From: a virus
Lineage: Duplodnaviria; Caudoviricetes
Reading direction: 5' to 3' (one strand)
Virus record (IMG/VR): IMGVR_UViG_3300033513_000018
Span: 1-44,154 of that record
DNA: 44,154 nt
Under the pieces are notes generated by a model. It was not told where the DNA came from. It searched no databases and saw only the letters and a program-made list of their open reading frames with translations. The first letter of the stretch is position 1, and every line of letters begins with the position of its first letter. A program made the translations under genes and the position numbers. This document shows positions 2,158 to 43,129 of this stretch, one piece after another.

Positions 2158-2185
2158 GGTTCCGAGTAGGCGGGTTATCGGAAGT
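2158..2185 (+). other. dif-like site 1: GGTTCCGAGTA ggcggg TTATCGGAAGT
   Basis: 11-6-11 imperfect inverted repeat recurring through the window. Confidence 0.75.
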
Positions 2186-2221
2186 GAAACGTGAAGCGTG
2201 AAACGTGAGGGGATGGAGTAG

Positions 2222-2677
2222 GTGGCGACGGAGAAGGAACGGATCATCAAGTTACAGGGAATCAATGCGCTGATTGCGGGGGTGCGATCGGCACCTCCTG
2301 AGATGCCGGGGGCGTTGACATCGGAAATGCTGCCGTGCGCGTTGACGTATCCGGGGCCGGGGACGCATTCGGTGCCGTTCTACTCCGGGAGGCGGACGGA
2401 CCGGATTTACGTGGTGCGGCTCTACGTGCAGCCGGTGGGCCAAGGGGAGGGGGTGGACGCGGGGTTCCAGGTGTGCTTGCCGTTCCTTGATTCGTTCCCG
2501 GATGAGTACCATACGACGACGATCATCGCGCCGGCGGATGAGACGTGGCAGGAGTTGGACTGCGAGAATGACACGGGGGTGCGGGCGGACCTCACGTTGC
2601 ATGGGGCACCTGGTGGTCAGACATATTGGGGAATCGTGTTCTCAGTGCGGATCAAGGTGAAGGCGGCGGTAGTGTGA
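2222..2677 (+). CDS. Putative tail terminator/completion protein
   Basis: 151 aa; lies between the connector and tail tube genes. Confidence 0.5.
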   Translation: MATEKERIIKLQGINALIAGVRSAPPEMPGALTSEMLPCALTYPGPGTHSVPFYSGRRTDRIYVVRLYVQPVGQGEGVDAGFQVCLPFLDSFPDEYHTTTIIAPADETWQELDCENDTGVRADLTLHGAPGGQTYWGIVFSVRIKVKAAVV

Positions 2678-3312
2678 TGAGGGTCCTGGTGTTCTGCCCG
2701 ACCAATGAGTTGTTTGGGGTGACGCTGCAGAGTATTTTTCGGCTGGAGTGGGACGGGCCGCTGGATATTTGGTTCGGGCGGGATAACCCGTACGGGGACC
2801 GAGTCAAGGACATCATTTACAGTTATGAACGCGGCCGGCAGGTGTTCATGGCCGGCGCGTGGGAGGCGATGCTGACGGTGGAGTCAGATATGGTGGTGCC
2901 GCCGAATGCGCTGCGGCGGCTGGTGGAGACGGGGGCGGACGTGGCGTACGGGCTGTATTGCTGGCGGGATCAGCCGGGGTGGAATGCGTATGTGGAGGTG
3001 AGGGAGGAGGGGTGGCCAGGGCATTCGATTACGGAGGAGCCAGATCGAGCGCGGGAGGGGTGGGGCCAGGTTATTGAGGTGACCGGCTTGGGGTTCGGGT
3101 GCACGCTGATCCGGCGGCCGGTGTTGGAGGCGGTGGAGTTCCACCTCGATGATGAGCAGGTGCCCGATTCGATGCTGGCCAGGGAGGCGATCCGACAGGG
3201 TTGGACGCAGAGGTGCGATTTGAATGTGGTATGTGGGCACGTGCAGCGGCCGATGTGGGTGCTGTGGCCGGATCTGATGGCGGAGGGGATGAGGCGGAGG
3301 ACACGGCTTTAA
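2677..3312 (+). CDS. Glycosyltransferase family 2-like protein
   Basis: MRVLVFCPT start, ESD (DxD-like) motif in TVESDMVVPPNAL, and GLGFGCTLIRRPVLE, typical of phage GT-A folds. Confidence 0.7.
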   Translation: MRVLVFCPTNELFGVTLQSIFRLEWDGPLDIWFGRDNPYGDRVKDIIYSYERGRQVFMAGAWEAMLTVESDMVVPPNALRRLVETGADVAYGLYCWRDQPGWNAYVEVREEGWPGHSITEEPDRAREGWGQVIEVTGLGFGCTLIRRPVLEAVEFHLDDEQVPDSMLAREAIRQGWTQRCDLNVVCGHVQRPMWVLWPDLMAEGMRRRTRL

Positions 3313-3335
3313 CCATGGATGGGGAGATACACGAT

Positions 3336-3590
3336 ATGACGAAGCGGCGAAAGGCGATTGCGATGGCGGGGGATGAGGTGCCGGTGATCCCGCAGGATCC
3401 CAGTACGGGACGGGATGTGCAGGCGCTGGTGGGGGTGGCATTCGTGTACGTGGGGCCGGGCTGGGCGCCAGGGGTGCCGGCGCGGAATCTGATGGCGGAG
3501 GAAGTGGAAGGGATCGGGCGGGAGAGGATTCGCAGGCTGCGGAGCCCGCACACGGGGGAGCCGCTATACATTGAGATCAGTGACCAGTGA
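3336..3590 (+). CDS. Hypothetical small protein
   Basis: ORF with GGAG upstream, filling the gap before the tail tube gene. Confidence 0.5.
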   Translation: MTKRRKAIAMAGDEVPVIPQDPSTGRDVQALVGVAFVYVGPGWAPGVPARNLMAEEVEGIGRERIRRLRSPHTGEPLYIEISDQ

Positions 3591-3610
3591 TCAGGGATTA
3601 GGAGGTTGAG

Positions 3611-4642
3611 ATGGCTGGTGAGAGGGTTCTGCACAAGATTCAGTATGGGAAGGAAACGAACCACGGGACGGCGGTGGTGGCGGATACGATGCTGCTGGGC
3701 GAGGTGACGCTGCCTGATTCGGACCGGACGGTCATCATCCCCGGGTTCGGGACGGGGGAACGGATCCCGGGGCAGTTGAACTCGGCGTTCGTGCGGCGGA
3801 TTCTGGCGAACGGGGTGCGGTTCGCGACGCCGGCGGACCGGGGCGGGCTGTATTATCAGTTGTTGCCGCTGATCTGGTCGGCGAGCATCGTGGGGGCTGT
3901 GTCACCGGCGGCGCAGACGTCGGGGCAGAGTGACTATCTGTGGACGCACGCGGTGCCGTTGAGCGCGGTGGAGACGATAGATTCATTCACGCTGGAGGCG
4001 GGCGACGATGCGCGGGCGTACGAGCTGGCGTACTGTATGTGTCCAGAATGGGAGCTGGCCGGGAACGCGGATAGCGGGGAGGTGACGCTATCGGCGACGC
4101 TGTTCGGGGATCAGATTGCGGCGACGACATTCACGAACTCGCTCACAGCGCCGTCAGCCACGTACGTGATTGGGAAGCTGGCAAAACTATACGTCAATGC
4201 ATCGTGGGCAACGCTGGGCAACACGGAATTCGAGGCCACCCTGCTGGACTGGCAGGTGTCGTTCAAGGGCGGGGTACATCCGAAGCTGCGCGGATCGGGG
4301 CAGCGAGTGTTGGACAGCCACGGGCAGGGGGAGGTCGAGGTGACGCTGAGCCTGGGGCTGGAGCGGACGACAGCAGTGGCGGCGGAGGAGGATTATTTTC
4401 TGGCGAGTACGGTGACGCCACGGTTCGTGCGGCTGGAGATTGACAGCGGGATTGACATCGCGGGGACGACCACCCATCACAAGATTACGTTGGATTTCGC
4501 CGGGGCGTGGGTGGCGTGGCAACCGTTCGGGAAGGATCAGGACGGGAATAATTTGAACGTGGCGACGCTGCGGGTGGGGAAGGATGCGACGGGGAGTCAA
4601 TCGTTCACGGCGAAGGTGATTACGAATGTGGCGTCCATTTAA
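3611..4642 (+). CDS. Major tail tube protein
   Basis: 343 aa; KIQYGKETNHGTAV N-terminus, SFTLEAGDD motif, strong RBS; precedes chaperone and tape measure genes. Confidence 0.75.
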   Translation: MAGERVLHKIQYGKETNHGTAVVADTMLLGEVTLPDSDRTVIIPGFGTGERIPGQLNSAFVRRILANGVRFATPADRGGLYYQLLPLIWSASIVGAVSPAAQTSGQSDYLWTHAVPLSAVETIDSFTLEAGDDARAYELAYCMCPEWELAGNADSGEVTLSATLFGDQIAATTFTNSLTAPSATYVIGKLAKLYVNASWATLGNTEFEATLLDWQVSFKGGVHPKLRGSGQRVLDSHGQGEVEVTLSLGLERTTAVAAEEDYFLASTVTPRFVRLEIDSGIDIAGTTTHHKITLDFAGAWVAWQPFGKDQDGNNLNVATLRVGKDATGSQSFTAKVITNVASI

Positions 4643-4708
4643 GAGGAACGCGGATGAACGCGGACAAACGCGGATGAACGCAGATCGGAAGGATTGGAGG
4701 GGGGAGAG

Positions 4709-5176
4709 ATGGATCTGGTTGGACAACTGAGAAGTATCGTGGTGAAAACCACATTGGACCTGTCGGAGCTGGAGGCGTCGTACCGGGGGCCGGAGGGGCC
4801 GCTGATGCTGGAGTTTCGGCTGAATTGGACGCGGGGGCAGAAGGAGAGGCAGCGGGCGCTGCAAGTGGAGACACTGGAGTTGCAGCGGCAGTACGCGCGG
4901 CTGAAGGACCTGGCGGATGATGAGGCGGCGTGGGAGAAGGCGCGCCAAGAGGCGGACGCCAGCAGCGAGGTCAATATGCGGCACTGGGCGGAGTGGTGGG
5001 GGGGGATTCTACTGATCACCACGGAGGAGGTGCTGGCGCTGATGGATGCGATCCCGGAGAACCACTGGACGTGGATCACGATGGAGGTGGCGCGGCGGGC
5101 GATGGAGTATGAGGAGAGCCAGGTAAAAAAAGCAGGCGGGCCGCGTTCACGTATTTCAGAAAAACCTCAAGCGTAG
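4709..5176 (+). CDS. Tail assembly chaperone (G-like)
   Basis: Between tail tube and TMP; A7 slippery tract at 5125-5131. Confidence 0.7.
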   Translation: MDLVGQLRSIVVKTTLDLSELEASYRGPEGPLMLEFRLNWTRGQKERQRALQVETLELQRQYARLKDLADDEAAWEKARQEADASSEVNMRHWAEWWGGILLITTEEVLALMDAIPENHWTWITMEVARRAMEYEESQVKKAGGPRSRISEKPQA

Positions 5177-5334
5177 CGCCGGCGGTGTGGCAGCGGGCAC
5201 GATTGGCGCGGTGGTTGAACGCGGCCTGCGGAACATCGCATTTCCATATCTGGAACGTGGGCGAGGTGCCAGACGTGGACGTGCGATGTTTGATAGAGGC
5301 GATGGAGTTGGAGGGGGAGTTTGGGTTCCGATAA
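5131..5334 (+). CDS. -1 frameshift extension of tail chaperone (GT-like), SRRAAFTYFRK...LEGEFGFR*
   Basis: The -1 frame from A AAA AAA stays open for 67 codons to TAA at 5332-5334 and has no own start or RBS. Confidence 0.65.
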   Translation, partial: SRRAAFTYFRKTSSVAPAVWQRARLARWLNAACGTSHFHIWNVGEVPDVDVRCLIEAMELEGEFGFR

Positions 5335-5351
5335 GGAAGGTAGTGGGAAGT
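5324..5351 (-). other. dif-like site 2 (reverse): GGTTCCGATAA ggaagg TAGTGGGAAGT
   Basis: Matches consensus; contains the stop codon of the frameshift product. Confidence 0.65.
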
Positions 5352-5506
5352 AAATGAGGAATGGGTAGATGAGGAATGGGTAGATGAGGAACGGGAAGGC
5401 GCAATCCGTTGTGCGTGCGATCGAAGGAATGGGACTCAGCTCACTGGCGATCTCCCCGGTTTTGGGGGCGTTTTGCAGGTTTCTATTGTAGGGAACGGGT
5501 CAAACG

Positions 5507-7267
5507 ATGGCGCAGAACGCGGTTGAGATTCTAATCAATCTGAAAAAGAGCGGCACCGGGGCGAAGCAGGCCGACGATGAGCTGCAGGGCGTGCAAAAGA
5601 CTGCGAAGGCTGTAGGGACGGCCTTGGCGGCGATGGCGACGATCGGGACGGTGAAGGCGCTGCACGAATTCGCGCGGTTGGGGGCGGAGAGTATTCGGAC
5701 GCGGAATGCGTTCACGGCGATCAGCGGCGGGGCGGATCAGGCCTCGGCGCGGCTGGAGGCGATGCAGCGGGCAACGCGGGGGGCGATCTCGGAGCAGCAG
5801 GCGATGGCGGTGGCCAGCCGGTTGATGCAGATGGGGCTGGCGTCGAATGCGGGTGAGTTGGAAAAGATCGCGGGGATGGCCGTGCGGCTAGGCTCGGCGA
5901 TGGGGAAGGATGCGGCTGGCAGTATCGAAGAGTTTGCGATGATGCTGGCCAACCAGTCCATCCCCAGGCTGGATACGTTTGGGATCTCATCGAGCAAGGT
6001 GCGCTCGCGAATGGAGGAGTTGCGGGCGACGACGGCGGGGATGACGCGGGAAGCGGCATTCATGGCGGCGGTGACGGAGCAGGGAGCGGCCGCGATGGAG
6101 CGGTTGGGGCCGGCGGTGGAAGATGAGGCGCTGGCATTCGAGAGGCTGGACGCGCAGATTGCGGATTCAAAGGCGGCGCTGGCGGAGCAGTTGGCGCCAG
6201 CGTGGGCGGATTTTCTAGGGCTGATGAATCGGGGGATTGAGGAGGCTGGAGGGTGGGGAACACGGTTAAAGCAATTCTGGGGGGGGCTGGCGGCGGGGGC
6301 ATTGAATATGGTGGGGGCGAAGGATTCAGCGCTGGGGTTGTTGAATTCGATGGGATTGCTGGACCAGGGGATACAGTATGTGACGAGTACGTCTAGGGAC
6401 GCGGGGGCGGCGCTTGATGGGGCGGGGGCGGCGATGGCAAGAAACCAGGCGGCGGCGGACCTGGCGGCCGGTGCGCAGTATAATCTTGCGACGGCGGCGG
6501 GGACGGTGGCCACGAAATTCGGCGAAATGAAGTTCGATGACGAAACCTTGTGGAAGATGGCAGCGGCCAGCGGGGCGTCGTTAGAGTCGCTGGGGCAGTT
6601 GGCCCAAATATTGGGAATTGCGAATCAGGCGGAGATTGAGAGTACGGTCCAGGCATATAAGAATGTGGAGGCGTTTGCGGCGGGGGAAATGAGCGCATAC
6701 GATCTGGCGGCCGGGAACACGGACTTGAGGCTGGCGACAGAAAAAGCGACGGAAGCGGCGAAGAAGGAAGAAAGAGCCAATGCGCTGTTGGGACGGAATT
6801 TGCCAGAGGTTGCGCGGCGAACGCTGGGGTTGGCTCGGAATACGGAGACGCTGGGGACGAATATGGATACGGTGAATCGAATGGGGATAGCGGTGGTTGA
6901 CACTCTGAATTCAATCCCTGAGACTATAACTATCCATATCCGATACGAGACCGAGGGGAATCCTCCCGTCTTCCCAGCTGGCACTGGTGGTGGGGGCACT
7001 GGGGGGGGCGGCCGCAGGCAATGGGGTGGACGGACGTGGGGGGGAGCGGTGTGGCTGGGAGAGGGGGGACCCGAGTTGGCGGTGCTGCCGCGCGGGACGG
7101 AGGTGGTGCCGGCGTGGCGGACGCGGGAGGTGGTGCGACAGAGTGTGGATCAGCGGAGTTGGAGCCGGGGGGGGGATACGTTCGTGCTGCAGGACCCGCT
7201 GGCGGTGGCGATGGTGCTGGAGGAGCGGCGGCGCTCGATTGACCGGCGGCTGAGCCGGGGATTCTGA
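5507..7267 (+). CDS. Tape measure protein
   Basis: 586 aa Ala-rich helical protein with C-terminal GGAVWLGEGGPELAVLPRG motif. Confidence 0.85.
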   Translation: MAQNAVEILINLKKSGTGAKQADDELQGVQKTAKAVGTALAAMATIGTVKALHEFARLGAESIRTRNAFTAISGGADQASARLEAMQRATRGAISEQQAMAVASRLMQMGLASNAGELEKIAGMAVRLGSAMGKDAAGSIEEFAMMLANQSIPRLDTFGISSSKVRSRMEELRATTAGMTREAAFMAAVTEQGAAAMERLGPAVEDEALAFERLDAQIADSKAALAEQLAPAWADFLGLMNRGIEEAGGWGTRLKQFWGGLAAGALNMVGAKDSALGLLNSMGLLDQGIQYVTSTSRDAGAALDGAGAAMARNQAAADLAAGAQYNLATAAGTVATKFGEMKFDDETLWKMAAASGASLESLGQLAQILGIANQAEIESTVQAYKNVEAFAAGEMSAYDLAAGNTDLRLATEKATEAAKKEERANALLGRNLPEVARRTLGLARNTETLGTNMDTVNRMGIAVVDTLNSIPETITIHIRYETEGNPPVFPAGTGGGGTGGGGRRQWGGRTWGGAVWLGEGGPELAVLPRGTEVVPAWRTREVVRQSVDQRSWSRGGDTFVLQDPLAVAMVLEERRRSIDRRLSRGF

Positions 7268-7321
7268 GCGGGAACGCAGAGGAACGCAGACAAACGCAGA
7301 TGAACGCGGATGGATGGGATT

Positions 7322-7349
7322 GGGTCCGAGTATGCTTGTTATCGGAAGT
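7322..7349 (+). other. dif-like site 3: GGGTCCGAGTA tgcttg TTATCGGAAGT
   Basis: Consensus match, intergenic after TMP. Confidence 0.75.
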
Positions 7350-7383
7350 GAAGGAGGATGGGATGGGTGATGGGATGGGTAGG

Positions 7384-7830
7384 ATGAGGGTTTGGTTGTG
7401 TGTGGCGGCGCTGGTGATGGTGGCGGCGGTGCCAGGGTCGGGGGGTGTGGTGCACCAATACGTGGGGGAGGGGGAGGTGGTGGAGGTGTTCGCAACGGCG
7501 GAGGGGGGGGCGGCGATGGTGTTGTTGTTCGACCGATCACCAATCAATATGCGGGAGGTGATGTTGCGGTTGGTGTACGTGGCTGACGGGGGTGTGGTGG
7601 CGCACGAGGTGATGCTGCCATTTGTGAGCCGACCGCAGCAGGTGGTGGCCCGGGCCGGGGGGCTGTACGTGCATGTGGTGGTGCAGTGGCAAGAGACCGT
7701 TGATGGGTTGCCACAGGTGCATTATTACCGGTGGCAGTTGCCGAGCCGGGTGGTGAGGCCGGTATTTTTGCCGTTGGTGGGAGGTGGCAATGGCGCAGGT
7801 ATTGAAGCTGGCGCGGACTGGCTCGAGTGA
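7384..7830 (+). CDS. Secreted protein with signal peptide and VFLPLV motif
   Basis: N-terminal MRVWLCVAALVMVAAVP signal; near-C-terminal VFLPLV as seen in Chloroflexota surface proteins. Confidence 0.55.
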   Translation: MRVWLCVAALVMVAAVPGSGGVVHQYVGEGEVVEVFATAEGGAAMVLLFDRSPINMREVMLRLVYVADGGVVAHEVMLPFVSRPQQVVARAGGLYVHVVVQWQETVDGLPQVHYYRWQLPSRVVRPVFLPLVGGGNGAGIEAGADWLE

Positions 7831-10662: not shown

Positions 10663-10669
10663 GAGTGTA

Positions 10670-12259: not shown

Positions 12260-12274
12260 CAAGGGAGGTGGAAC

Positions 12275-12616: not shown

Positions 12617-12660
12617 AGAAATACACGATGAACCTCGGATGAAGAAATACACGATGGGGA

Positions 12661-12688
12661 AGTTCTGAGTAGGTAAGTTATGAGTATT
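12661..12688 (+). other. dif-like site 4 (degenerate right arm): AGTTCTGAGTA ggtaag TTATGAGTATT
   Basis: Left arm and TTAT match; right arm overlaps the methyltransferase start codon. Confidence 0.5.
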
Positions 12689-13509: not shown

Positions 13510-13515
13510 TGCGGG

Positions 13516-14511
13516 CTAGAGGCGCCAGTTGTCCACGGGGCTGGCGCGCTGGTGAGCGTCGGCGCAGTCGGCCTGGACGATGGCCAGGTAGTGGCGGACC
13601 ATCTCCAGGTTGGAGTGGCCGAGTAGGATCTGCAGGGTGAACGGGTCGCCGCCGTTGCGCAGGTAGGTGATGGCGAAAGTGTGGCGGAAGCGGTGGGGGT
13701 GGACGCGGGGGATGCCGGCGCGGTCACCGATGCGCTTGAGAAGGCGGCGGAGGACGTTGGGAGCGAGCGGGCGGGTATCGTCGGCGGGGCCGACGGTGAA
13801 GACAGGTTGATCGGGTTTGGTGCTCTGTAGACGCGGGGTGAGGTAGCGCCAGAGGGCGCGGGCGGTGCGTTTGCCGAAGTAGACGGTTCTCTCCTTTTTC
13901 CCTCTCCCTTTTCCTTTTCCCCTTACTATCAAGGTGTTGGCGGTCAGGTTGACGTCGTCGAAGGTGAGGCCGCAGAGTTCGCTGCGGCGGATGCCGGTGT
14001 CGAGGAGGACGAGGACGATGGCGCGGTCGCGGTCGGCGGTGGCGCGTTTAGAGACGGTGTGGGGGCGGGTCTTCCAAGAGCGGCCGACGTCACAGGCATG
14101 GAGCAGGGCGGTGAGTTCGTCGTGGGTGAAGGGCTCGATGGCGCGGGATTCGTATTCGGGCGCCTCGATGGTGCGGATGAGGTTGGATTTAACATAGCCT
14201 TCATCGGTGGCCCAGGTCCAGAGGGCGGAGAGGGCGGTATGGATATTGTAGACGCTCTTGGGGGCCAGGTGGATCAGGCCGCGGGGGGCGAAGCCGTCGG
14301 GGTCGGTGACGTAGCCATCCTGGAGGTAGGCGAAGAATTCTACCAGTTGCTGGCGGGTGATGGAGGAGATGGGAGGATCGTCGGGGAAGTAGGCGGCGAG
14401 TTTTTTGTAGGCGTTCTGGTAGTCCACGATGGTGGCCGGGGCTTTGCCGGTGGCGGTTTTGTAGAGGAGGCAGCCGGCGGTGGCCTGGGAGAGTGTCAGG
14501 TTGTGGGCCAT
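13516..14511 (-). CDS. int: Tyrosine integrase
   Basis: TGIRRSE (R), GKG..KER (K), HRFRHTFA (HxxR), LGHSNLEMVRHY (H,Y); adjacent to attP. Confidence 0.9.
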   Translation of the reverse strand: MAHNLTLSQATAGCLLYKTATGKAPATIVDYQNAYKKLAAYFPDDPPISSITRQQLVEFFAYLQDGYVTDPDGFAPRGLIHLAPKSVYNIHTALSALWTWATDEGYVKSNLIRTIEAPEYESRAIEPFTHDELTALLHACDVGRSWKTRPHTVSKRATADRDRAIVLVLLDTGIRRSELCGLTFDDVNLTANTLIVRGKGKGRGKKERTVYFGKRTARALWRYLTPRLQSTKPDQPVFTVGPADDTRPLAPNVLRRLLKRIGDRAGIPRVHPHRFRHTFAITYLRNGGDPFTLQILLGHSNLEMVRHYLAIVQADCADAHQRASPVDNWRL

Positions 14512-14600: not shown

Positions 14601-14812
14601 GCCATGAGGTCGGGAGATTGGGGGGGAGGAGGGGAGTGTGGCGCTTATGGGTTGATTTTTCGGGAGGCCATGAGGGCCAAAGTACCCTCGGCAGGATTCG
14701 AACCTGCGGCCTCCTGGTCCGCAGTTAAGGGGTCTGGAGTTTGGGGTGATGACCTCATGGTGGCCGTTTTTCGGGCGCCGTGAGGTCAGTTTGTTTGTGT
14801 TCCCATGAGGGC
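14601..14812. repeat. Putative integrase arm-type/accessory binding sites CCRTGAGG(G/T)C
   Basis: Copies at 14601, 14667, 14751 (inverted), 14777 and 14802, flanking the att core. Confidence 0.65.
14682..14724 (-). other. attP core: 3' half of tRNA-Arg(GCG)
   Basis: Minus strand reads CTGCGGA CCAGG AGGCC GCAGG TTCGAAT CCTGC CGAGGGT AC, i.e. anticodon loop, T-arm and acceptor 3' strand; no 5' half. Confidence 0.85.
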
Positions 14813-14852: not shown

Positions 14853-14880
14853 AGTTCCGAGTATCGGTATTATCAGAAGT
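14853..14880 (+). other. dif-like site 5: AGTTCCGAGTA tcggta TTATCAGAAGT
   Basis: Consensus match, 2 bp from the lipoprotein stop. Confidence 0.75.
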
Positions 14881-17589: not shown

Positions 17590-17782
17590 CCGGACTGCTC
17601 GCTCAGCCTGGCAGGCGACGATGGAGCGGGCCGAGCGGCGGATGGATCCGGTAATGATGGTTTCATTGGCACGGCTGAGGGATTGTATCGCGGAGATCGA
17701 GAGGCTGGCCAGGGATGCGCGAGATGGGAGATATGAGCAACACCAGGTCGTGGGTGGACGAAAGACCGATACGAGTGATTGA
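17531..17782 (+). CDS. Hypothetical protein
   Basis: GAGGGG RBS; phage-like codon usage. Confidence 0.5.
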   Translation: MATRLANKTIWALEDMIAFSRTARSAWQATMERAERRMDPVMMVSLARLRDCIAEIERLARDARDGRYEQHQVVGGRKTDTSD

Positions 17783-18836
17783 GGTCGAGCCGGTGGCGGT
17801 GGAGCCGCTGACGGTGTATGTGGCCGGGGAGAATGTGCCCAGCCGGCCGGGTGAGCGGCAGACGCTGGCGGGCTCGGGGGCGCTGGTGCCAGTGCGGGAG
17901 CCAACGATCGAGGAGATGCTGGCAGCATTCGAGGCGTGGATGCGGCTGGACGTGGCGGAGGGGAATGGGTCGCCGCAGACGCTGCGGGCGTATTTCGGCG
18001 ATGTGAAGCAGCATCTGGAATGGTTGGCGGAGCAGGGGTTGCGGCCGGCGCAAGCGGGCGAGGAAGACCTGAAAGCATTCCGCGCACACCTGGTGGACGG
18101 GTATGCGGTGACGACGGCGGGGCGGAAGCTGGCCAGCGTGCGGCGGTTCTATGAGATGGCCAGGGCGCGGGGGCTGATCACGCAGAACCCGGTGGCGGGG
18201 CTGAAGGCGCCGTCGGATAGGACGGCGCGGGAGGAGCGGATCAAGTACTTGACGCTGGAGCAGGCGCGGCGGGTGCTGGCGCTGCCCAATGTGAATACGC
18301 CGAAGGGGATCAGGGATAAGACAATCTTAGTGCTGATGGCGTTGCACGGGCTGCGGGTAATTGAGGTTCATCGGCTGTCGTTGGAGGATGTGGACCTGGA
18401 GGCGGAGGAGGCGGGGACGCTGCGGCTGTTCGGGAAGGGGAATAAGCATCGCACGATTCTGTTGACGGTGGAGACGCGGGAGATTATGGAGCGGTGGCTG
18501 GCGGCACGGGCGTTGACGCGCTCGGACTCGCCGGCCGTTTTCGTGACGATGCATTGGACGGATGCCGCGGTAGAGCCCGGGCAGCGGATCAGTACACGGG
18601 GGATCCGGCAGATGGTGGATGGGTATCTGCGGGCGGCGGGGGTGAAGAAGCCGAGGGTATCGTGCCACTCGTTGCGGCACTCGTATGCGACGCTGAGTTT
18701 AGCGGCGGGAGCGTCGCTGTTGGCGATCAGTGGGAGCCTGGGGCATTCGTCGGTGACGACGACGCAGGTGTACGCGAAGATCGTGGATAAGGCGCGGAGT
18801 AACCCGGCGAAGTTGCTCGTCGGGTTGTTGGATTAG
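17733..18836 (+). CDS. XerC/D-like tyrosine recombinase (second recombinase)
   Basis: SPQTLRAY N-domain; GLRVIE, GKGNKHR, HSLRHSYA, LGHSSVTTTQVY with a full catalytic set. Confidence 0.9.
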   Translation: MSNTRSWVDERPIRVIEVEPVAVEPLTVYVAGENVPSRPGERQTLAGSGALVPVREPTIEEMLAAFEAWMRLDVAEGNGSPQTLRAYFGDVKQHLEWLAEQGLRPAQAGEEDLKAFRAHLVDGYAVTTAGRKLASVRRFYEMARARGLITQNPVAGLKAPSDRTAREERIKYLTLEQARRVLALPNVNTPKGIRDKTILVLMALHGLRVIEVHRLSLEDVDLEAEEAGTLRLFGKGNKHRTILLTVETREIMERWLAARALTRSDSPAVFVTMHWTDAAVEPGQRISTRGIRQMVDGYLRAAGVKKPRVSCHSLRHSYATLSLAAGASLLAISGSLGHSSVTTTQVYAKIVDKARSNPAKLLVGLLD

Positions 18837-19688: not shown

Positions 19689-19716
19689 GGTTCCGATAAG
19701 AGGTGTACTAGGAAGA
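19689..19716 (-). other. dif-like site 6 (reverse): GGTTCCGATAA gaggtg TACTAGGAAGA
   Basis: Consensus match, 4 bp after a stop codon. Confidence 0.75.
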
Positions 19717-22680: not shown

Positions 22681-22708
22681 GGTTCCGAGTAGAGGGGTTA
22701 TCGGAAGT
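22681..22708 (+). other. dif-like site 7: GGTTCCGAGTA gagggg TTATCGGAAGT
   Basis: Best consensus copy. Confidence 0.8.
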
Positions 22709-26021: not shown

Positions 26022-26965
26022 CGGCGATTCAGATGTGTTGCGGGGCGGGAGGCAGCACATTGGGATTCGAGAGAGCGGGGATCGAGACTGTATTGGCGTT
26101 CGATGTGGATCCTATGATGATCGAGATGCACAGAGCGAACTTTCCAGCTCAGCGGAGTGAGATACTGGACATTCGGGCGGTACATCATTGTAGGTTGCCA
26201 GAGGCAAACATCTGGGTATGCGGAATCCCGTGTGAGCCCTTCAGTGCGGCGGGTTTGCGGTTAGGGCACTCTGACGCACGGGATATTTCGTTCGAGGTGG
26301 TTCGGCTGATCGGCGAGATCGCTGATCATCCACAGCCCGACTATATCTTCCTCGAAAATGTTCCATTGTTTCGGGGATCGAGGGCAGCGGCGCAGATCAG
26401 GACGGCGCTGGTGGATGTAGGATTCACTCACGTATTAGAAGCGATTTTTCTCTACGCGGATTATGGGATATGCCAGATGCGCCGGCGGTGGCACATTATC
26501 GCCAGCAGGCGGGCACCTACGCCCACACCTGAGCCGACGCACAGTGAGAATGCGGACTTATTCGGCCGGCTGCCCTGGATTCGGTTCGGGCAGATTCGGG
26601 ATGGGACGGGGAGCCAATATGCGAGCGCGAAGGCGCTCAAGGGGATATTCAGGAGTGCGTACTCGCCACAGATTGTGGACGATGACGATATGTTGCCGAC
26701 CGTGGTGTCGGCCTGGCGGGCGCGGATCAATGGAACAGCGCCGCTGATTTATTGTGACGGTAAATTGAGGCCACCTACGCTGCTAGAGGCGGCGCGGGCG
26801 CAAGGGTTTCCAGAAGGGTTTGTTTTACTAGGAGATCTGACTACACGCTGGAAGGCCGTGGGGCAGGCGATGGCGCCAGCGTTCGTGGAGGCCGTGGGGA
26901 AGGCTATCAGCAGTTCTGATAAGAGGGCTACTGGGAACGAGAAGTTGGGGGTGGAGGATGAGTAG
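26018..26965 (+). CDS. C5 cytosine DNA methyltransferase
   Basis: MCCGAGG (motif I variant), GIPCEPFS, FLENV, Q.RRR, EAARAQGFP. Confidence 0.9.
   Translation: MTAIQMCCGAGGSTLGFERAGIETVLAFDVDPMMIEMHRANFPAQRSEILDIRAVHHCRLPEANIWVCGIPCEPFSAAGLRLGHSDARDISFEVVRLIGEIADHPQPDYIFLENVPLFRGSRAAAQIRTALVDVGFTHVLEAIFLYADYGICQMRRRWHIIASRRAPTPTPEPTHSENADLFGRLPWIRFGQIRDGTGSQYASAKALKGIFRSAYSPQIVDDDDMLPTVVSAWRARINGTAPLIYCDGKLRPPTLLEAARAQGFPEGFVLLGDLTTRWKAVGQAMAPAFVEAVGKAISSSDKRATGNEKLGVEDE
26912..26939 (-). other. dif-like site 8 (reverse): AGTTCTGATAA gagggc TACTGGGAACG
   Basis: Consensus match in the non-conserved C-tail of the MTase, just before ftsK. Confidence 0.7.
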
Positions 26966-29268: not shown

Positions 29269-29297
29269 GGTTCCGAGTAAGGAATCTTATAGGGAGT
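29269..29297 (+). other. dif-like site 9 (degenerate, 7-bp spacer): GGTTCCGAGTA aggaatc TTATAGGGAGT
   Basis: Perfect left arm; preceded by the same TACACGAT motif as other sites. Confidence 0.55.
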
Positions 29298-31736: not shown

Positions 31737-31741
31737 CGTTG

Positions 31742-31769
31742 GGTTCCGGGTAGCATTGTTATCGGAATG
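31742..31769 (+). other. dif-like site 10: GGTTCCGGGTA gcattg TTATCGGAATG
   Basis: Consensus match before the lysis module. Confidence 0.75.
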
Positions 31770-31799
31770 TAATCTCAAGAATCTATAGGAGGTGTGGAG

Positions 31800-32087: not shown

Positions 32088-32088
32088 C

Positions 32089-32451: not shown

Positions 32452-32478
32452 ACGCAGATTGGAGGGGAGGAGACTGGG

Positions 32479-33696: not shown

Positions 33697-34518
33697 GTGA
33701 AGGGGATTGGGTGGGCGACTGAGGAACTACGCCAGGCGCTGGTCGGGCTGAGCGGGCAGCAGATCGGCGGGATTGTGCGGCTGGTGCAGGCGGAGCTGGA
33801 CGGCCGGACGTTGACATCGCTGCTGGAGGGGTCGAATAAGATTTGCACCTCAGCGACGTTCTATGGGCGGGGGAAGCGGAGGGGTTGGCGCAGCCAGCCG
33901 GGATTCGTGCGGGCGCTCGACCTGGCACGGCGGGATTATCGGGCGTGGCTGCTGGAGCACTCGACGGGGGAGGCGCTGACGGTGCTGGCCAGCACGGCGC
34001 CAGAGGCGGCGCGGGCGCTGCGGCAGCAGGTGATAGGAAATGAGGTAGCCGTCGCGGCGCTGGAGACGATGCTGTGTACACAGGATGCGGATCTGCGGCG
34101 ACGCGCGGCGGAGGGGTTGGGGAGGACGGGGCTGGCCCGGGTGGCGGAGCCGCTGAGGCGGGCGCTGGAGCGGGAGCGGGATCCCGAGGCGCTGGCAGCG
34201 CTGGTGGAGGCGCTGGGCCACGTGGCGGGTTCCCGGGACGGGGACCGGCGAACGGCGGCGGTGGCGGTGCTGGATCGGGCGGATATTCGGACGGCGGGGA
34301 AGGCGGCGGCGTCGCTGAACCAGGATGAGTATCTGGACCCGCTGGGGCACTTGTCGGATGAGGAGTTGGAGCAGGTGATCGCGAACCTGATGGTCGTACA
34401 GGCGGGCGCGGCCGGGGGGGAGTGTCATAATCACTACACGCAAACGGATGGAACCACGGATGGGGAAATACACGATGGGAACGGGGCTAGTTCCGATAAG
34501 GATCGAACTGGGAAGTAA
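33697..34518 (+). CDS. HEAT-repeat protein, probable terminase small subunit
   Basis: N-terminal TFY...W..QPGF HTH-like segment, HEAT repeats (RRRAAEGLG, ALVEALG), C-terminal LSDEELEQ; upstream of TerL. Confidence 0.6.
   Translation: MKGIGWATEELRQALVGLSGQQIGGIVRLVQAELDGRTLTSLLEGSNKICTSATFYGRGKRRGWRSQPGFVRALDLARRDYRAWLLEHSTGEALTVLASTAPEAARALRQQVIGNEVAVAALETMLCTQDADLRRRAAEGLGRTGLARVAEPLRRALERERDPEALAALVEALGHVAGSRDGDRRTAAVAVLDRADIRTAGKAAASLNQDEYLDPLGHLSDEELEQVIANLMVVQAGAAGGECHNHYTQTDGTTDGEIHDGNGASSDKDRTGK
34489..34516 (-). other. dif-like site 11 (reverse): AGTTCCGATAA ggatcg AACTGGGAAGT
   Basis: Consensus match at a gene boundary. Confidence 0.7.
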
Positions 34519-34546: not shown

Positions 34547-35311
34547 ATGAATCCGATTCTGGCGATGATCAGGGCGGGGGTGCGGCGGACCGGGTTCGAC
34601 GTGGTGCGGTACCGGCGTGTGCCGCTGCCACCGGCCGATCTTGATGCACGCGACGTAGCGATTTGGAACAGGGTGCGGGATTATACGATGACCAGTCCCG
34701 AACGGGTGGCGGCGCTGGCCAGGGCGGTGCGGTACGTTGTGCGGGCGGAGATTCCAGGGGCAATCGTGGAGTGCGGGGTGGCGTGGGGTGGCAGCATAAT
34801 GGCGGCGGCGCTGGCGCTCTTGGAATGTGGGGTGAGGGATCGGGAATTATGGCTGTACGATACGTTCGAGGGAATGACACCTCCTGGGCCGGAGGATGTG
34901 ACGGGCGCGGGGGTGACAGGTACTGAGTTGTTCGAGCAATACACGCTTCACGGCCGGCGCGCCTGGTATGCGGTGGCGGTGGATGAGGTGGGCCGGAATG
35001 TGTGGAGCACGGGGTATCCGATGGACCAGGTGCACATGGTGAAGGGGCGCGTGGAGGATAGGCTGCCGGGGGTGATGCCGGCGAAGATGGCGCTCTTACG
35101 GCTGGATACCGATTGGTATCAGAGCACGAAGCACGAGCTCGTGCATCTGTATCCATTATTGTCGCCCGGCGGGGTGCTGCTCCTCGATGATTACGGCGGC
35201 TGGCGCGGCAGCCGTAAGGCGGCAGATGAGTATCTGCCGGGGGATGTGCTGTTGTGCCGGATTGATCAGCGTGGGTGCATAGCGGTGAAACCCGCGAGGG
35301 GGGGGGAGTGA
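34547..35311 (+). CDS. TylF/MycF/NovP-type O-methyltransferase
   Basis: YTMTSPER, IPGAIVECGVAWGGS, LYDTFEGM, LLRLDTDWYQST, LDDYG. Confidence 0.9.
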   Translation: MNPILAMIRAGVRRTGFDVVRYRRVPLPPADLDARDVAIWNRVRDYTMTSPERVAALARAVRYVVRAEIPGAIVECGVAWGGSIMAAALALLECGVRDRELWLYDTFEGMTPPGPEDVTGAGVTGTELFEQYTLHGRRAWYAVAVDEVGRNVWSTGYPMDQVHMVKGRVEDRLPGVMPAKMALLRLDTDWYQSTKHELVHLYPLLSPGGVLLLDDYGGWRGSRKAADEYLPGDVLLCRIDQRGCIAVKPARGGE

Positions 35312-37008
35312 TAGGTACGCTGCCGGGGGCGGTGAATGGGAGGCGGGGGCTGGCGGCGGCGCTGGCGGAGCGGGCGCGGCGATACCACGGATTGGGAAAT
35401 ACACGATACGAATCGGGAGAGGCACGATTGGATCTGTTGATGTGGACGATTACGCGGCGGCCGCTGCTGAAGGTCGGGGCGGCATTCGACCTAGTGAGGC
35501 ATCCGTACCTAGTGGATCTGTACCGGGAGCAGGCGAAGGTGGTAGTGGTGTTCAAAGCGTCGCAGATGGGGGCCTCGGAGTGGGCGATTTCGTATGCGTT
35601 GCACGCGGCGGATGAACGGGGGATGACGATGCTGTACGTGTTCCCCACCGACGTGCACGTCTCGGATTTCTCGGCGGCGCGGATTGGGCCGGCAATCGAG
35701 GCCTCGCCGTATCTGGACGGGATCATTGTTGAAGGCGGCGCGGGGGAGGGGAAGCGGGGGGCGGACCGGGTGACGCTGAAGCGGGTGCGGGACCGGTTCG
35801 TGTATCTGCGGGGGGCGAAGGTGGCGCCGGATGGGAAGGCGCCTCAACTAAAGGCGATTGATGCGGATGGATTGATCCTGGATGAGGTGGACGAGATGGA
35901 TCCACGGGCGGCGGCAATCGCGGTGAAGCGGTTGGGCCATTCGGAGGTGGCGGAGGAGCGGTGGATTTCGACGCCGACGTACGCGGGAGTCGGGATCCAC
36001 GCGAAGTGGGGGGAGAGCGACCAACGAGAGTGGTTTGTCAGGTGTATGTGTGGGGAATGGCAGGGGTTGAGCATCCATCAGGTCGTGACGGAGTGGGATC
36101 AGTTGGAACGGCCGGTGGAGTGGCACGGGAAGGAGGAGGGGCGGGCGTGGGTGGCGTGCCAGAAGTGCGGGGCGGAAGTCAACCGGTTGGGAGCGGGGGA
36201 GTGGGTGGCGGGGTGGCCGGGGCGCGACGTCGTTGGGTATCATTTGTCGAAGTTGTTCAGCCCGGCGGTGACGGTGCTGCAGTTGGTGACGGGCCTGCAG
36301 ACGGTGGATGAGACGAAGCGGCGGGAGGCGTTCAATCAGGACCTGGGGCAGCCGTACACGCCGCGGGGCGGGCGGTTGAATGAGGAGGTGCTGGATAAAT
36401 GCCGGCGGGAGTACGGGCACGGACCGGTGGAAGGGGAGCGGCCGGTGATGGGGGTGGATGTCGGGCGGGTGATGTACGGAGTGATCAGGTCGCAGGCGGA
36501 TGAGGAGACGGGGGAACGGGTGCAGAGATGGGCGGGGGAGATCGAATCGTGGGAGGGGCTGGCACACCTGGTGAAGCAATACGATGTAGCGACGCTGGTG
36601 ATTGATGCGCTGCCAGAAACATCGAAGGCGCGGGAGTTGCAGGCGGCGTTTTCACGAGGGCGCGTGTATCTGGCCTATTACGTGACGCAGAAGGTGGGTA
36701 GCAAGCGGGCGGAGCCGATGCAATGGGATGAGGACCAGGGGGTCGTCAACCTGGATCGGACGAGGGCGCTCGATCTGACGATGGCCAGGTTCTTTGGAGG
36801 GGAGAATACGCTGCCGCTATATGCGCGGGATGTGGCGGGGTACTATGAGATGATGCAGGCGGTGGTGCGGGTGATCGAGGACGGGCCGGGGGGGGAGAAA
36901 GTGGCGCGGTACGTGGAGGCGGGGCCGGATCACTTTTGCCATGCGGAGAATTATTGTGCGGTGGCGAGTCTGGCGCCGGAGGTGTGGGATGGGCTGGGGT
37001 GGGCGTAG
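35308..37008 (+). CDS. Terminase large subunit (lambda gpA-like)
   Basis: FKASQMGASE Walker A, LILDEVD Walker B, ISTPT, SDQREWFVRC, GVDVG, DHFCHA. Confidence 0.9.
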   Translation: MIGTLPGAVNGRRGLAAALAERARRYHGLGNTRYESGEARLDLLMWTITRRPLLKVGAAFDLVRHPYLVDLYREQAKVVVVFKASQMGASEWAISYALHAADERGMTMLYVFPTDVHVSDFSAARIGPAIEASPYLDGIIVEGGAGEGKRGADRVTLKRVRDRFVYLRGAKVAPDGKAPQLKAIDADGLILDEVDEMDPRAAAIAVKRLGHSEVAEERWISTPTYAGVGIHAKWGESDQREWFVRCMCGEWQGLSIHQVVTEWDQLERPVEWHGKEEGRAWVACQKCGAEVNRLGAGEWVAGWPGRDVVGYHLSKLFSPAVTVLQLVTGLQTVDETKRREAFNQDLGQPYTPRGGRLNEEVLDKCRREYGHGPVEGERPVMGVDVGRVMYGVIRSQADEETGERVQRWAGEIESWEGLAHLVKQYDVATLVIDALPETSKARELQAAFSRGRVYLAYYVTQKVGSKRAEPMQWDEDQGVVNLDRTRALDLTMARFFGGENTLPLYARDVAGYYEMMQAVVRVIEDGPGGEKVARYVEAGPDHFCHAENYCAVASLAPEVWDGLGWA

Positions 37009-37099: not shown

Positions 37100-37127
37100 A
37101 GTTCCGATAAGTTGTCTACTAGGAATC
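37100..37127 (-). other. dif-like site 12 (reverse): AGTTCCGATAA gttgtc TACTAGGAATC
   Basis: Consensus match 3 bp before the portal start. Confidence 0.75.
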
Positions 37128-39230: not shown

Positions 39231-39687
39231 GGTTGAAGGGCTGGCGGAGGTTCAGAAGATGCTCCGAGCAGAGATCGCCGGGGCGATCCGAGCCGCGGCG
39301 CTGGCGGTGGGTGAACAAATCCGAGGCCGGATTGCCGTTTACCCGGCGCAACGGGCACCGACGAATCCGAATCATTGGTATGAGAGGGGATACGGGTCAA
39401 AGTGGAGGAGGAAGGACGGGAGCGTCAAGGGGCGGGCGACGTCGGAGCAGTTGGGGCAGAAGTGGACGGTGGCTGCGCGGGGTGATGGGGCGGTGGTGGG
39501 AAACCCTGCGTCGTATGCTCCATTTGTCCAATCGGAGGACGAGCAGGCGGCGGCCCACGCGGCGACGGGGTGGGTGACGGATGAGCAGGCGGTGGAGGCG
39601 GTGATGGAGAGCGGGGTAGTCGAGCAGATCGTAGTGGACGCGGTGGTGAAGGCGATGCAGAATATCGCGGCGGGGGGTTCCGGGTAG
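39208..39687 (+). CDS. HK97 gp10-like neck/morphogenesis protein
   Basis: VEVEGLAEV start; VGNPASYAPFV. Confidence 0.65.
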   Translation: MADEGGVEVEGLAEVQKMLRAEIAGAIRAAALAVGEQIRGRIAVYPAQRAPTNPNHWYERGYGSKWRRKDGSVKGRATSEQLGQKWTVAARGDGAVVGNPASYAPFVQSEDEQAAAHAATGWVTDEQAVEAVMESGVVEQIVVDAVVKAMQNIAAGGSG

Positions 39688-39703
39688 TGAGATTATCGGA
39701 AGT
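39676..39703 (+). other. dif-like site 13: GGTTCCGGGTA gtgaga TTATCGGAAGT
   Basis: Consensus match overlapping a stop codon. Confidence 0.75.
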
Positions 39704-41130: not shown

Positions 41131-42513
41131 ATGGATATCAAGGAGCGAATTCGGCAGTTGATGGCTGCCGCACGGGAGAAGGCGAAGGAGGCAAAGGCGC
41201 TACTGGTGCTGGAGGTGCCCGAGACTGAGAAGGCGAACGCGCTGTTGAAGGAGGCGGAGAGCCTGCGGGACCAGGCCAGCGCTCTGAAGAGCGCACAGGC
41301 AATCGAGGACCAGGTGGGGGAGCCGGTGCTGCCGGGGGTGCTGCCGATGGGCACAGAGCCCGGGGCGCTGCCGGGGGCGGCGGCCGATGTGCTGGGGAAG
41401 GCGATCAACGATCTGCGGTTCGGGCCAATGGACGATCCGGCCAGCGTGGTGATGCGGGAGATCTATGGCGCGGACTACAGGCAACTGGTGTTCGACCAGA
41501 CGAAGGCATTCGCGCGGTATCTGCGGACGGGGCAGCCGGACCGGATTCTCAGCCGGCAGGTGTGGGGGCTGGACGACGTCAAGGCAATGCTGCGGGATGG
41601 GCTGACGGTCCAGGAGATCAAGACGACGATGGTGGAAGGGCAGGACACGCTCGGCGGGTATGCGGTCCCTCCCCAGCAGGCGGCCGACATTCTGAAGCGG
41701 ATACCGGGGATGACGTGCGTGCGAGCCGGTGGGGCGACGGTGGTCCAGACGGCGTCGAATATGATCGAGTGGCTGAGCCTGACCGGGGGCAGTTCGCGGT
41801 ACCCGACGGCGCTGCGCGGGGCGTGGGGGACGGAGGTCCAGAGCCCGAGCGAGAAGAACTTGACACTTGGCCTGGAACAGATCAATGTGCACACCTACAC
41901 CTACAAGGTGCCCATGTCGCAGAGCCTGGTCGAGGACGCGAGCAACCTGGTGGCTATCTTCAACGACATGGTGGCGGTGACGCTGGCCATAGACGAGGAC
42001 GATGCGTTCCTGATCGGGGATGGGGTCGGGAAGCCGCGCGGGATTCTGCCGAGCAGCGGGAATGCGGATGGGATCACGGAGGTGGTGACGACGAACGCGA
42101 GCGCGCTGACGGTGGAGAAGGTGAAGGCGCTGCGGCGCGGGATCAACAGCCAGTACCGGCAGCCGGCGACCAGAGCCTCGTGGATTGCGAACAGTGCGAC
42201 GGCGAGCACCATCGAGGAGATGCAGGACGGCAATGGCAACTTTTACTTCGAGGATCTGATCGTGGGCGAGGCGTTCCTGCGGCATATCTGGCGTGAGTCG
42301 GAGGCGATGCCAGACATCGCTTCGCAGGCGTACCCGATTCTGTTCGGCGATCTCTCGGGGTACATCATCGTGGAGCGCCTGGGGCTGAGCGTGGTGCGGT
42401 TCCAGGACAGCAACACCGGGATCAACAAGGTGGAGTTCCACGTGCGGCGGCGCCTGGGCGGCCGGCTGATGGAGACGTGGAAAATGTGTGTACAGCACTG
42501 CGCGGCGTCGTAA
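41131..42513 (+). CDS. Major capsid protein (HK97 fold with N-terminal delta domain)
   Basis: GGYAVPPQ, MSQSLVED, AFLIGDGVGKPRGIL, ILFGDL. Confidence 0.92.
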   Translation: MDIKERIRQLMAAAREKAKEAKALLVLEVPETEKANALLKEAESLRDQASALKSAQAIEDQVGEPVLPGVLPMGTEPGALPGAAADVLGKAINDLRFGPMDDPASVVMREIYGADYRQLVFDQTKAFARYLRTGQPDRILSRQVWGLDDVKAMLRDGLTVQEIKTTMVEGQDTLGGYAVPPQQAADILKRIPGMTCVRAGGATVVQTASNMIEWLSLTGGSSRYPTALRGAWGTEVQSPSEKNLTLGLEQINVHTYTYKVPMSQSLVEDASNLVAIFNDMVAVTLAIDEDDAFLIGDGVGKPRGILPSSGNADGITEVVTTNASALTVEKVKALRRGINSQYRQPATRASWIANSATASTIEEMQDGNGNFYFEDLIVGEAFLRHIWRESEAMPDIASQAYPILFGDLSGYIIVERLGLSVVRFQDSNTGINKVEFHVRRRLGGRLMETWKMCVQHCAAS

Positions 42514-42560
42514 GAGTGAACGCGGATGAACGCAGATGAGGATGGATAAGGAGGATTGAG

Positions 42561-43031
42561 ATGGCTATGGGACGGAGTGGCGAGATTTTCGCCGATACGT
42601 ACAAGATCGTGAACGGCCAGTCGCTGCCAGAGACGGTGCTGTCATCGGCGGCGTACCCGGCGAGCGGGTCCTACATTGATGTCAGCGGGTGCGAGCGGTT
42701 CCACTGTCTGGTGCACTGGGGGACGATCGCGGGCGGGGATACGCCAGTGGCGACGCTCAAAGAGGCGGATGCGGCGGATGGGACGCTGGACACGATTGAT
42801 GCGACCTATGCGGCGCACACGGGAGCGAACAACGACGACGGGGAGTGGGTGTCGTTCACCGTCGAGGTGGATCAGCTGTCCACGGACCACCACTTCGTGT
42901 CGTGCGTGCTGAGCGGGATCAGCGGGTCAACCTACGGAGAGATCTTCTTCTTGCTGCCGCTGCTGAGCCTGCCAGTGACGCAGACGACGGCGGTACTGCC
43001 GAGCGCGTCGCAGCATGCGCTGGTGGGGTAG
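42561..43031 (+). CDS. Putative capsid cement/decoration protein
   Basis: Follows MCP; YIDVSG motif; GGAGG RBS. Confidence 0.55.
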   Translation: MAMGRSGEIFADTYKIVNGQSLPETVLSSAAYPASGSYIDVSGCERFHCLVHWGTIAGGDTPVATLKEADAADGTLDTIDATYAAHTGANNDDGEWVSFTVEVDQLSTDHHFVSCVLSGISGSTYGEIFFLLPLLSLPVTQTTAVLPSASQHALVG

Positions 43032-43040
43032 AGTGAGGAC

Positions 43041-43068
43041 GGGGAGGGGTGCGGGGGCACTCCTCCCC
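43041..43068 (+). terminator. Hairpin GGGGAGGGGTGC-GGGG-GCACTCCTCCCC
   Basis: 12-bp stem after the head genes; no U-tract. Confidence 0.45.
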
Positions 43069-43101
43069 CTAAACCACGGATGGGGAAGTACACGATAGGA
43101 T

Positions 43102-43129
43102 AGTTCCGAGTAGAACAGTTATCGGAAGT
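43102..43129 (+). other. dif-like site 14: AGTTCCGAGTA gaacag TTATCGGAAGT
   Basis: Consensus match. Confidence 0.8.

Follow-up and report, generated by a model that had tools for sequence, protein, structure and literature searches.

An evenly spaced, family-wide array of 11-6-11 sites in phages and the Xer/Cre-like recombinase that is likely its cognate enzyme

Background

Tyrosine recombinases of the Xer/Cre type carry out efficient strand exchange only between sites with identical centres. Phage P1 has a single loxP site of 13-8-13 layout, and Cre closes the redundant P1 virion DNA. The pdif sites of Acinetobacter plasmids are of 11-6-11 layout, occur in many copies with different centres per replicon and often at gene borders, use the host XerC/D proteins and usually alternate in orientation around accessory genes. 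In Bacillus, XerD/XDS sites unload SMC, acting as binding sites without recombination. Here we analyze an array of 14 dif-like sites in the virus record IMGVR_UViG_3300033513_000018 (Caudoviricetes), a temperate phage, together with an Xer/Cre-like recombinase encoded by the same phage. The whole 44,154-bp stretch that was analyzed is called the window.

The array is real and family-wide, and probably serves a form of site-specific recombination in phages whose mechanism can be put to the test. No description of such an array was found in the open-access literature, most subscription papers lying outside the search.

Results and Discussion

The site array and its spacing

A preliminary description, made from the sequence of the window alone, had listed 14 sites, nine in one orientation and five in the other; all of its coordinates and the split were confirmed, and its spacing of about 2-5 kb corresponds to measured gaps of 1998-5339 bp (Table 1). 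It had given all sites the 11-6-11 layout, which held for 13 clean sites but not for that at 29269 (GGTTCCGAGTA-AGGAATC-TTATAGGGAGT), where seven bases separate the arms and the right arm is poor. With the sites oriented alike the consensus is (G/A)(G/C)TTCC(G/C/T)AGTA-N6-TTATC(G/A)GAA(G/C)T. The 13 clean sites scored 28-39 bits with a position weight matrix (PWM), compared with a best of 20.2 bits and a mean of maxima of 9.0 bits in 100 order-3 Markov simulations, and a PWM scan of the whole window revealed no full site beyond those known; in the parallel comparison with host dif, detailed below, matches did not exceed the control. In a leave-one-out scoring with a 6-bp gap the site at 29269 obtained -5.9 bits and the other sites 19-38 bits, and by its sequence it looks decayed. 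The only arms outside full sites were one stray strong arm and two single arms just upstream of int (14533 and 14554), which the preliminary description had overlooked. Its statement that almost all sites abut or overlap a start or stop codon applies to only about eight of the 14, although for 13 the distance to a called start or stop is no more than 40 nt.

Table 1. Positions of the sites, arms and principal genes in the window
Feature	Position	Strand	Remarks
Full site	2158..2185	+	Centre GGCGGG
Full site	5324..5351	-	Centre CCTTCC
Full site	7322..7349	+	Centre TGCTTG
Full site	12661..12688	+	Centre GGTAAG; weakest of the clean sites; overlaps a start codon
Integrase (Int)	13516..14511	-	331 aa; two-domain tyrosine recombinase, no N-terminal extension
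Single arm AGTTCCGATAA	14533..14543	+	Upstream of int; the first in a pair of direct repeats; layout kept in relatives
Single arm AGTTCCGATAA	14554..14564	+	Second repeat, 21 bp from the first
tRNA 3'-half	14682..14730	-	Predicted attP core, between the single arms and the full site at 14853
Full site	14853..14880	+	Centre TCGGTA; about 345 nt from the int start, position kept in relatives
Xer/Cre-like tyrosine recombinase	17715..18836	+	373 aa (367 aa from ATG 17733); early operon
Full site	19689..19716	-	Centre CACCTC; same centre at the equivalent place of L288
Full site	22681..22708	+	Centre GAGGGG
Full site	26912..26939	-	Centre GCCCTC; within the final codons of a C5 methylase open reading frame
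Apparently decayed site	29269..29297	+	7-bp centre AGGAATC; G001 and G002 carry GGAATC
Full site	31742..31769	+	Centre GCATTG; same centre at the equivalent place of L002
Full site	34489..34516	-	Centre CGATCC
Large terminase	35275..37008	+	gpA-type Pfam domains, PHROG 675
Full site	37100..37127	-	Centre GACAAC
Full site	39676..39703	+	Centre GTGAGA
Full site	43102..43129	+	Centre GAACAG

The main new fact about the array is its evenness. The coefficient of variation (CV) of the gaps in the window was 0.32, against 0.85 in a null made of random draws of an equal number of gene junctions (P 0.0001). Pattern and protein scans, in which shuffled sequences gave 0-3 matches, showed that nine further records, from uncultured phages, carry arrays of 5-18 sites each: G001 (15 sites in 48.4 kb), G002 (18 in 53.5 kb), G003 (8), G411 (11), G413 (11), G415 (7), G004 (6, and another 3 selected by eye), G412 (11, 9 of them passing the arm scan) and G005:C3 (5). 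Six of the ten records were even, G001, G002, G003, G411 and G413 joining the window with CVs of 0.41, 0.46, 0.19, 0.38 and 0.28 between them (P<=0.0007; null CV 0.80-0.93); genes were called with a simple codon-model script and the junction counts are approximate. The mean gap in the six even records was 3.0-3.7 kb and the largest internal gap 3.7-5.5 kb, or 10-15% of record length, and every 5.5-kb stretch between the outer sites contained a full site. In the complete circular G004, six sites and three hand-picked sites of a second type gave nine gaps of 1.3-6.1 kb (maximum 6.07 kb, P 0.0004). Loss of the site at 29269 would leave a gap of 4830 bp, still below the largest gap of the window. 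Several sites, G001:15457, G411:19951 and G413:10480 among them, fall within long open frames, where only crossover of a site with its own copy is harmless.

Short tandem repeats (AACGCAGATG, ACCACGGAT and GAAACGTGA), all on the + strand, often adjoin sites, and the contigs of the sequencing run break there. They fall into three groups, at 4647, 7283, 13254, 13450, 22610, 32421, 37044 and 42519, at 22652, 29233, 34453, 35384 and 43073, and at 2186, 22709 and 39704. The assembled contigs of run X1, possibly the run from which this DNA came (about 36% read), passed unbroken through the sites at 7322, 14853 and 37100, rare variants dropping from contigs; no joint was listed in the X1 contigs over positions 1-20000, and contigs alone cannot test inversion or excision. 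Joints at sites in runs X2-X4 were those of other strains with the same short flanking repeats.

The recombinase and its tie to the sites

The catalytic set R214-K241-H318-R321-H344-Y353 is complete in the protein encoded at 17715-18836, confirming the earlier statement that the phage encodes an intact Xer-like enzyme. Among 40 aligned homologues R214, H318, R321 and Y353 were invariant and K241 and H344 nearly so. A structural model (mean predicted local distance difference test score, pLDDT, of 86) showed a core-binding and catalytic fold whose matches were XerA (top), integron integrase, XerD, XerH and Cre. The protein scored 166 bits against an XerC cut-off of 335 and 165 bits against an XerD cut-off of 330, and was also far under the XerA and XerS cut-offs, indicating that it is not an XerC/XerD orthologue. 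Searches of 50,697 phage records and of plasmids turned up no close homologue, the best matches being at about 31% and 38%, respectively.

Of 18 full-length homologues with an intact catalytic set, 12 have a site no more than 60 nt from the stop codon; the window gene is separated by 853 nt from the next site. In L100, L101, G029:C77 and G034:C6, which are not phages, the recombinase gene has one site directly behind it. Arm-profile distance followed recombinase distance with a rho of 0.74 (P 0.003 and 0.0008 in two sets of eight records each), co-variation being weaker for Int (rho 0.50) and for the CI-like repressor (rho 0.34). In a recombinase tree obtained by a quick IQ-TREE search, G004, G413 and G415 formed one clade and have common TTAGCGG/TTAACGG arms; the Int of G413 sits with that of G003, a record whose arms are of the window type, but the sites of G413 follow the recombinase clade. 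The R-K-H-R-H-Y set was intact in every full-length homologue with sites, and three homologues with replaced catalytic residues (the clade of G275:C23, G294:C15 and G194:C58), possibly repurposed as DNA binders, had no sites nearby. Because of this adjacency, the co-variation and the loss of sites along with degenerate catalytic residues, the Xer-like enzyme is likely the cognate enzyme of the sites, in support of the tyrosine-recombinase interpretation of the preliminary description and of the tie it had drawn to the phage's own enzyme. Int was rejected for this role, given its weaker co-variation, the discordant position of G413 in the Int tree and the tRNA-type core next to int.

Arm spacing is strict, with no site having a 5-bp gap and two having a 7-bp gap. 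Given the consistent difference between the two arms (GTA|TTA in 102 of 116 sites), a partner protein may act beside the Xer-like enzyme. The recombinase turned up in 8 of the 401 genomes searched within the class, located on phage or otherwise mobile DNA, and the hosts are therefore likely Anaerolineae. One Thermoflexales metagenome-assembled genome (MAG), G007, carries arrays on contigs and has two tail-region genes in common with the window.

Centres and mosaic borders

Every centre in the window is different, as had been described, yet this lies within chance: none of 642 within-record pairs over 133 sites was identical, where 0.68 would be expected. Centre edges are constrained, with A at position 1 in 2/133 and T at position 6 in 5/133. 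The preliminary description had suggested that spacers are addresses at which related phages swap modules, and three loci of G001 and G002 are in keeping with this, since the centres CGGCAG, GGAATC and GCGGCA are identical at equivalent loci despite unrelated flanks on both sides. The module enclosed by CGGCAG and GGAATC is a primase module in one of these records and a helicase module in the other; the centre at 29269 of the window is GGAATC with one extra A. On the other hand, of the 12 equivalent centres compared in G001 and G002 just 4 are identical and 8 differ (P=0.15 under plain drift; 75% identity over the 12 pairs), and between the window and its closest relatives two of seven equivalent centres are identical and five differ. 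Spacers were conserved by position at a minority of loci and have mostly drifted. Between records there were 43 identical centre pairs compared with 16 expected, many of them from near-duplicate strains, and G-rich centres such as TGGGGA, possibly ribosome-binding sites, recur in unrelated records.

The expectation that mosaic breakpoints fall at the sites held in part. In G001 and G002 the recombinase gene and a tail block each align from site to site, and gene order was kept at 0/7 and 1/9 site junctions compared with 15/25 and 14/22 other junctions. Pooled over the records, order was kept at 36/220 site and 160/599 other junctions (P 0.002; the counts are non-independent); this synteny test omitted G414 (0 sites) and L004 (1 site). 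The excess per junction was small, with breaks at 0.85 of 81 site junctions and 0.75 of 255 others (P 0.06; 0.10 for wide gaps only), and enrichment of breaks at the DNA level was not significant (P 0.47 and 0.12). These results indicate that exchange at shared centres probably happens; population-wide addresses are not supported by the data.

A possible role in closing permuted virion DNA

We tentatively favor, as a reading that falls short of probable, an array read by the phage's own Xer/Cre-like enzyme which would allow crossover between two copies of one genome position, the likeliest purpose being to circularise an incoming permuted, terminally redundant chromosome independently of the host. 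The enzyme would bind and cut the sites, and exchange would require identical centres, with the result that a site would pair solely with its own second copy and that deletions and inversions within one genome would be blocked by the differing centres. Since tyrosine recombinases need identical centres, the array would do nothing within a single genome copy but could act wherever a position is present twice. The virion DNA would be permuted with an end repeat of about 5-6 kb (10-14%), and a largest gap of about 5.5 kb would place at least one site in each end repeat; an upper limit on the gap would arise because the end repeat of every permuted molecule has to include a site. The array would take the place of Erf/Red/Sak-type annealing, and swaps with relatives still sharing a centre would be a by-product. 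As precedents, P1 packages about 112% of a genome length into its head (PMC10999674), and Erf of P22 is reported to be implicated in circularisation (PMC5499656). In a scan of five records for annealing proteins, RecT, ERF and Rad52-type proteins were found in none and no Sak4-type match was over the cut-off; PHROG scans gave no annealing protein either.

Several observations weigh against this closure of permuted DNA. Selection for unique centres is not supported, their all being different lying within chance. Evenness was not significant in G412, G415 and the six-site G004, and in G005:C3, where the gaps reach 7.0 kb, it was borderline (P 0.04); the first 6.0 kb of G003 is without a site. 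G414, with an intact recombinase homologue, shows no array over 40 kb, and none of the 27 open reading frames (ORFs) scanned there was identified as an annealing protein. The phages with arrays span four terminase classes, and the terminase of the window has gpA-type domains. The gpA family includes the cos-cutting terminase of lambda, SPO1-type phages have fixed terminal repeats, and headful series started at pac often permute part of the genome only. With partial permutation uniform cover would be unneeded, since it requires a long or unanchored headful series. Four of the five records in the annealing-protein scan are rated incomplete, and half of the lambdoid phages lack annealing recombinases anyway (PMC3784561).

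A wider version of this reading, which we consider doubtful, is that a family of Chloroflexota phages has given up homologous recombination for a digital form of it. One enzyme and a genome-wide set of orthogonal addresses, at intervals slightly shorter than the virion end repeat, would serve closure of any permuted chromosome and mosaic exchange at shared addresses, and the enzyme would also be the arm binder at attP for an integrase with no arm domain of its own.

Evenness would be accounted for equally well by a binding role of the kind also suggested in the preliminary description, in which the enzyme, placed at intervals of a few kb, would organise the DNA or stand in the way of SMC/Wadjet loop extrusion or of processive nucleases, its catalysis being needed at a single site at most. 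The XerD unloading of SMC in Bacillus is a precedent, and at the conserved single-arm pair of attP, which cannot recombine, binding alone likely matters. We nevertheless find such a role unlikely, because the array is made up of complete sites, each with two arms and a gap fixed at 6 bp, single arms are nearly absent outside attP, catalytic residues are intact where sites exist and lost where they are absent, and JetD_C occurred in no more than 6 of the 121 genomes scanned from the likely host class. More doubtful still is mosaicism as the selected function, with centres serving as population-wide addresses for module swaps. The three G001/G002 loci with their exchanged primase and helicase modules, the site-to-site alignments, the gene order of these two records and the excess of identical centres between records speak for it; the small excess of breaks per junction, the null result at the DNA level, the majority of differing equivalent centres and the recurrence of G-rich centres in unrelated records speak against it, and it predicts neither even spacing nor sites within genes. 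Slightly less credible again is that the same array and enzyme were selected for crossover between sister circles or damaged siblings, whether in forming concatemers, resolving dimers or rescuing genomes after nuclease cuts. Identity would be required only between copies, which fits the drifting centres, the intact catalysis and the missing annealing proteins, and it would be independent of terminase class. However, dimer resolution and concatemer formation need one site, as in single-site elements, and only the repair version wants even cover, with no sharp limit predicted near 10-14% of genome length.

The dif-like 11-6-11 layout would also suit host XerC/D, acting on dif copies or on borders of pdif-like cassettes; the consistently differing arms would fit two proteins, and G006, G007 and G009 each encode several tyrosine recombinases. 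This is very improbable, since the arm sequence changes with the phage enzyme and orientations do not alternate, same-orientation runs of sites occurring in 9/9 records listed. A chromosomal host dif was rejected: the pattern at one mismatch was found in 19 of 301 genomes of the likely host class compared with 25 for a reversed control, and 11 of 30 matches were in the MAG G007, on array-carrying contigs. A search for the canonical XerD arm in 121 genomes gave 172 matches compared with about 108 in the control, TTATGTCAA being also the complement of a -35 box. The accessible part of Kono 2011 (PMC3025954) gives no Anaerolineae dif and lists only Dehalococcoides. That the sites are stoperator-like operators of the CI-like repressor is the hardest of all to credit, even though most lie just upstream of a gene start. 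Operators and stoperators are found at the immunity promoter and polar to transcription, whereas the sites occur in both orientations relative to transcription (59 and 35), the CI-cro interval has no site and has palindromes of its own, CI shows the weakest co-variation, and single sites adjoin the recombinase gene in stretches without a CI match.

The attP region

Int consists of core-binding and catalytic domains only and, to judge from its sequence and surroundings, likely acts on the tRNA-derived att core and not on the array. The tRNA stretch of att matches tRNA-type ends in 41 of 101 genomes at <=3 mismatches and exactly in none, and the 42-nt att stretch had no match in 301 genomes; a contig break falls at 14695-14724, inside the tRNA 3'-half. 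Two arms at +22 to +50 from int are present in 7 of 12 relatives (G001, G002, G003, G004, G412, L275 and L277) and in L300, making eight, and in 10 of 12 an arm recurs at about +310 to +357. The eight share the layout of the window, the arm pair being followed by a tRNA 3'-half and then by a full site or an arm roughly 345 nt from where int starts. In attP of lambda, arm-type sites stand around the att core. Likewise, direct-repeat arms flank the att core here, at about 130-160 bp; unlike in lambda, Int has no N-terminal extension and the arms are those of the array. A role in binding only is likely at attP since a single-arm pair cannot recombine. By analogy, the Xer-like enzyme may be a binder there for int control or excision, a second recombinase thereby supplying the arm binding of attP. 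A direct repeat of 125 bp, 94% identical (13189-13313 and 13385-13509), lies just past the int stop codon.

Other features of the window and its relatives

The window is the whole virus record, without end repeats and with a CheckV completeness of 38%; the same protein sequence is also recorded from a 47,828-bp contig. A scan of 60 ORFs gave matches to terminase, portal, capsid, integrase, a CI-like helix-turn-helix protein, the second tyrosine recombinase, a ParM-like protein, a helicase and an FtsK-like ATPase. The FtsK-like motor named in the preliminary description is thus present as an ORF, but it had no gamma-domain match and is not general, no FtsK match being found in G001, G002, G004, G411 and G412. 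On this absence FtsK was rejected as a partner of the enzyme; the ParM-like protein is also patchy.

The best matches of the window terminase to cultured phages were at 25-27% identity, mostly to SPO1-like and related large phages of Bacillus, Vibrio and Lactobacillus; over the terminases compared, identity to cultured phages was 25-51%. Terminase_6 was the domain in six relatives and gpA in the window, with no Terminase_1 among the nine tested, and comparison with solved structures gave no match. Contig depth in X1 went from 23 near the terminase to 13 near int, with too few contigs to show a headful gradient.

The CI-cro interval (16036-16208) has palindromes of its own, CACGTGACAAATGTCACGTG and GAACGTTC, which are likely real operators. 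G skew on the + strand is strong and uniform over the whole window (+0.16 to +0.44), minus-strand genes included. An Rfam scan of 13000-33000 found nothing, and ARAGORN at low threshold gave noise only.

G004 and G412 each have a second recombinase clade, accompanied by longer palindromic sites (AAAAC..CCGTTAA-N6-TTAACGG..GTTTT) at 9138, 26768, 37495, 45343, 53169 and 64085 in G412 (L395-L398) and at 13076, 25374 and 39380 in G004, often with a single arm 65-85 nt off and an ACGCGCGTAATCA motif between. In G001 a reverse transcriptase gene (L227:18202-19278, PHROG 1423) stands between head and terminase genes, adjoins array sites and is absent from G002; that it belongs to a diversity-generating retroelement is a guess. 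The terminase block of G001 (42812-45213) is inverted relative to the other late genes, and a small head-region gene occurs twice (22493-22819 and 31639-31962), each copy behind a site. L060, an otherwise unrelated virus record, has two same-orientation sites, at 9999 and 12812, both with the centre GTCAAC and 2813 bp apart, which is the layout of an excisable cassette. Single near-matches (ATTTCCGAGTA-N6-TTATCGGAA) were seen in L092, L093, L096, L108, L110, L113 and L120, MAGs of Legionellales and other gammaproteobacteria, with no homologue of the phage enzyme nearby.

Significance and comparison with known systems

If closure by the array were true, it would be a third route to recombination in temperate phages, beside an annealing protein of their own or host machinery; site spacing would directly predict the length of the virion end repeat, and mosaic borders at gene boundaries would have a concrete origin. 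The family also offers a natural panel of one recombinase, more than 100 different centres and several arm clades, suited to tests of centre orthogonality and to use as a genetic tool.

Among known systems, the Chi-rich lambdoid phages resemble these in having no annealing protein and many copies of a recombination motif, as described in PMC3784561; Chi recruits host RecBCD and clusters between the origin and the packaging site, whereas the sites described here are two-armed, even and tied to a phage enzyme. The XerS/difSL, XerH/difH and XerA/dif modules likewise have one enzyme, imperfectly symmetric arms and a gene beside the site, according to PMC5357621, but they are chromosomal and single-copy, near the terminus, while the present sites are multi-copy on mobile DNA. 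In contrast to pdif sites, the arms here follow the phage enzyme and the sites run through core head and tail genes at even intervals. Cre/loxP of P1, which serves multimer resolution according to PMC10999674, is alike in having a two-domain tyrosine recombinase of the phage, its own core-only site and a choice of partner set by centre identity. It is unlike in that up to 18 sites of 11-6-11 layout occur per record here, with different centres and even spacing, in that Cre and the window recombinase are 15-18% identical in fold alignments, and in that this phage has a separate integrase too. With 14 sites compared with a single lox, the array at most works like Cre/loxP and is not a member of that system.

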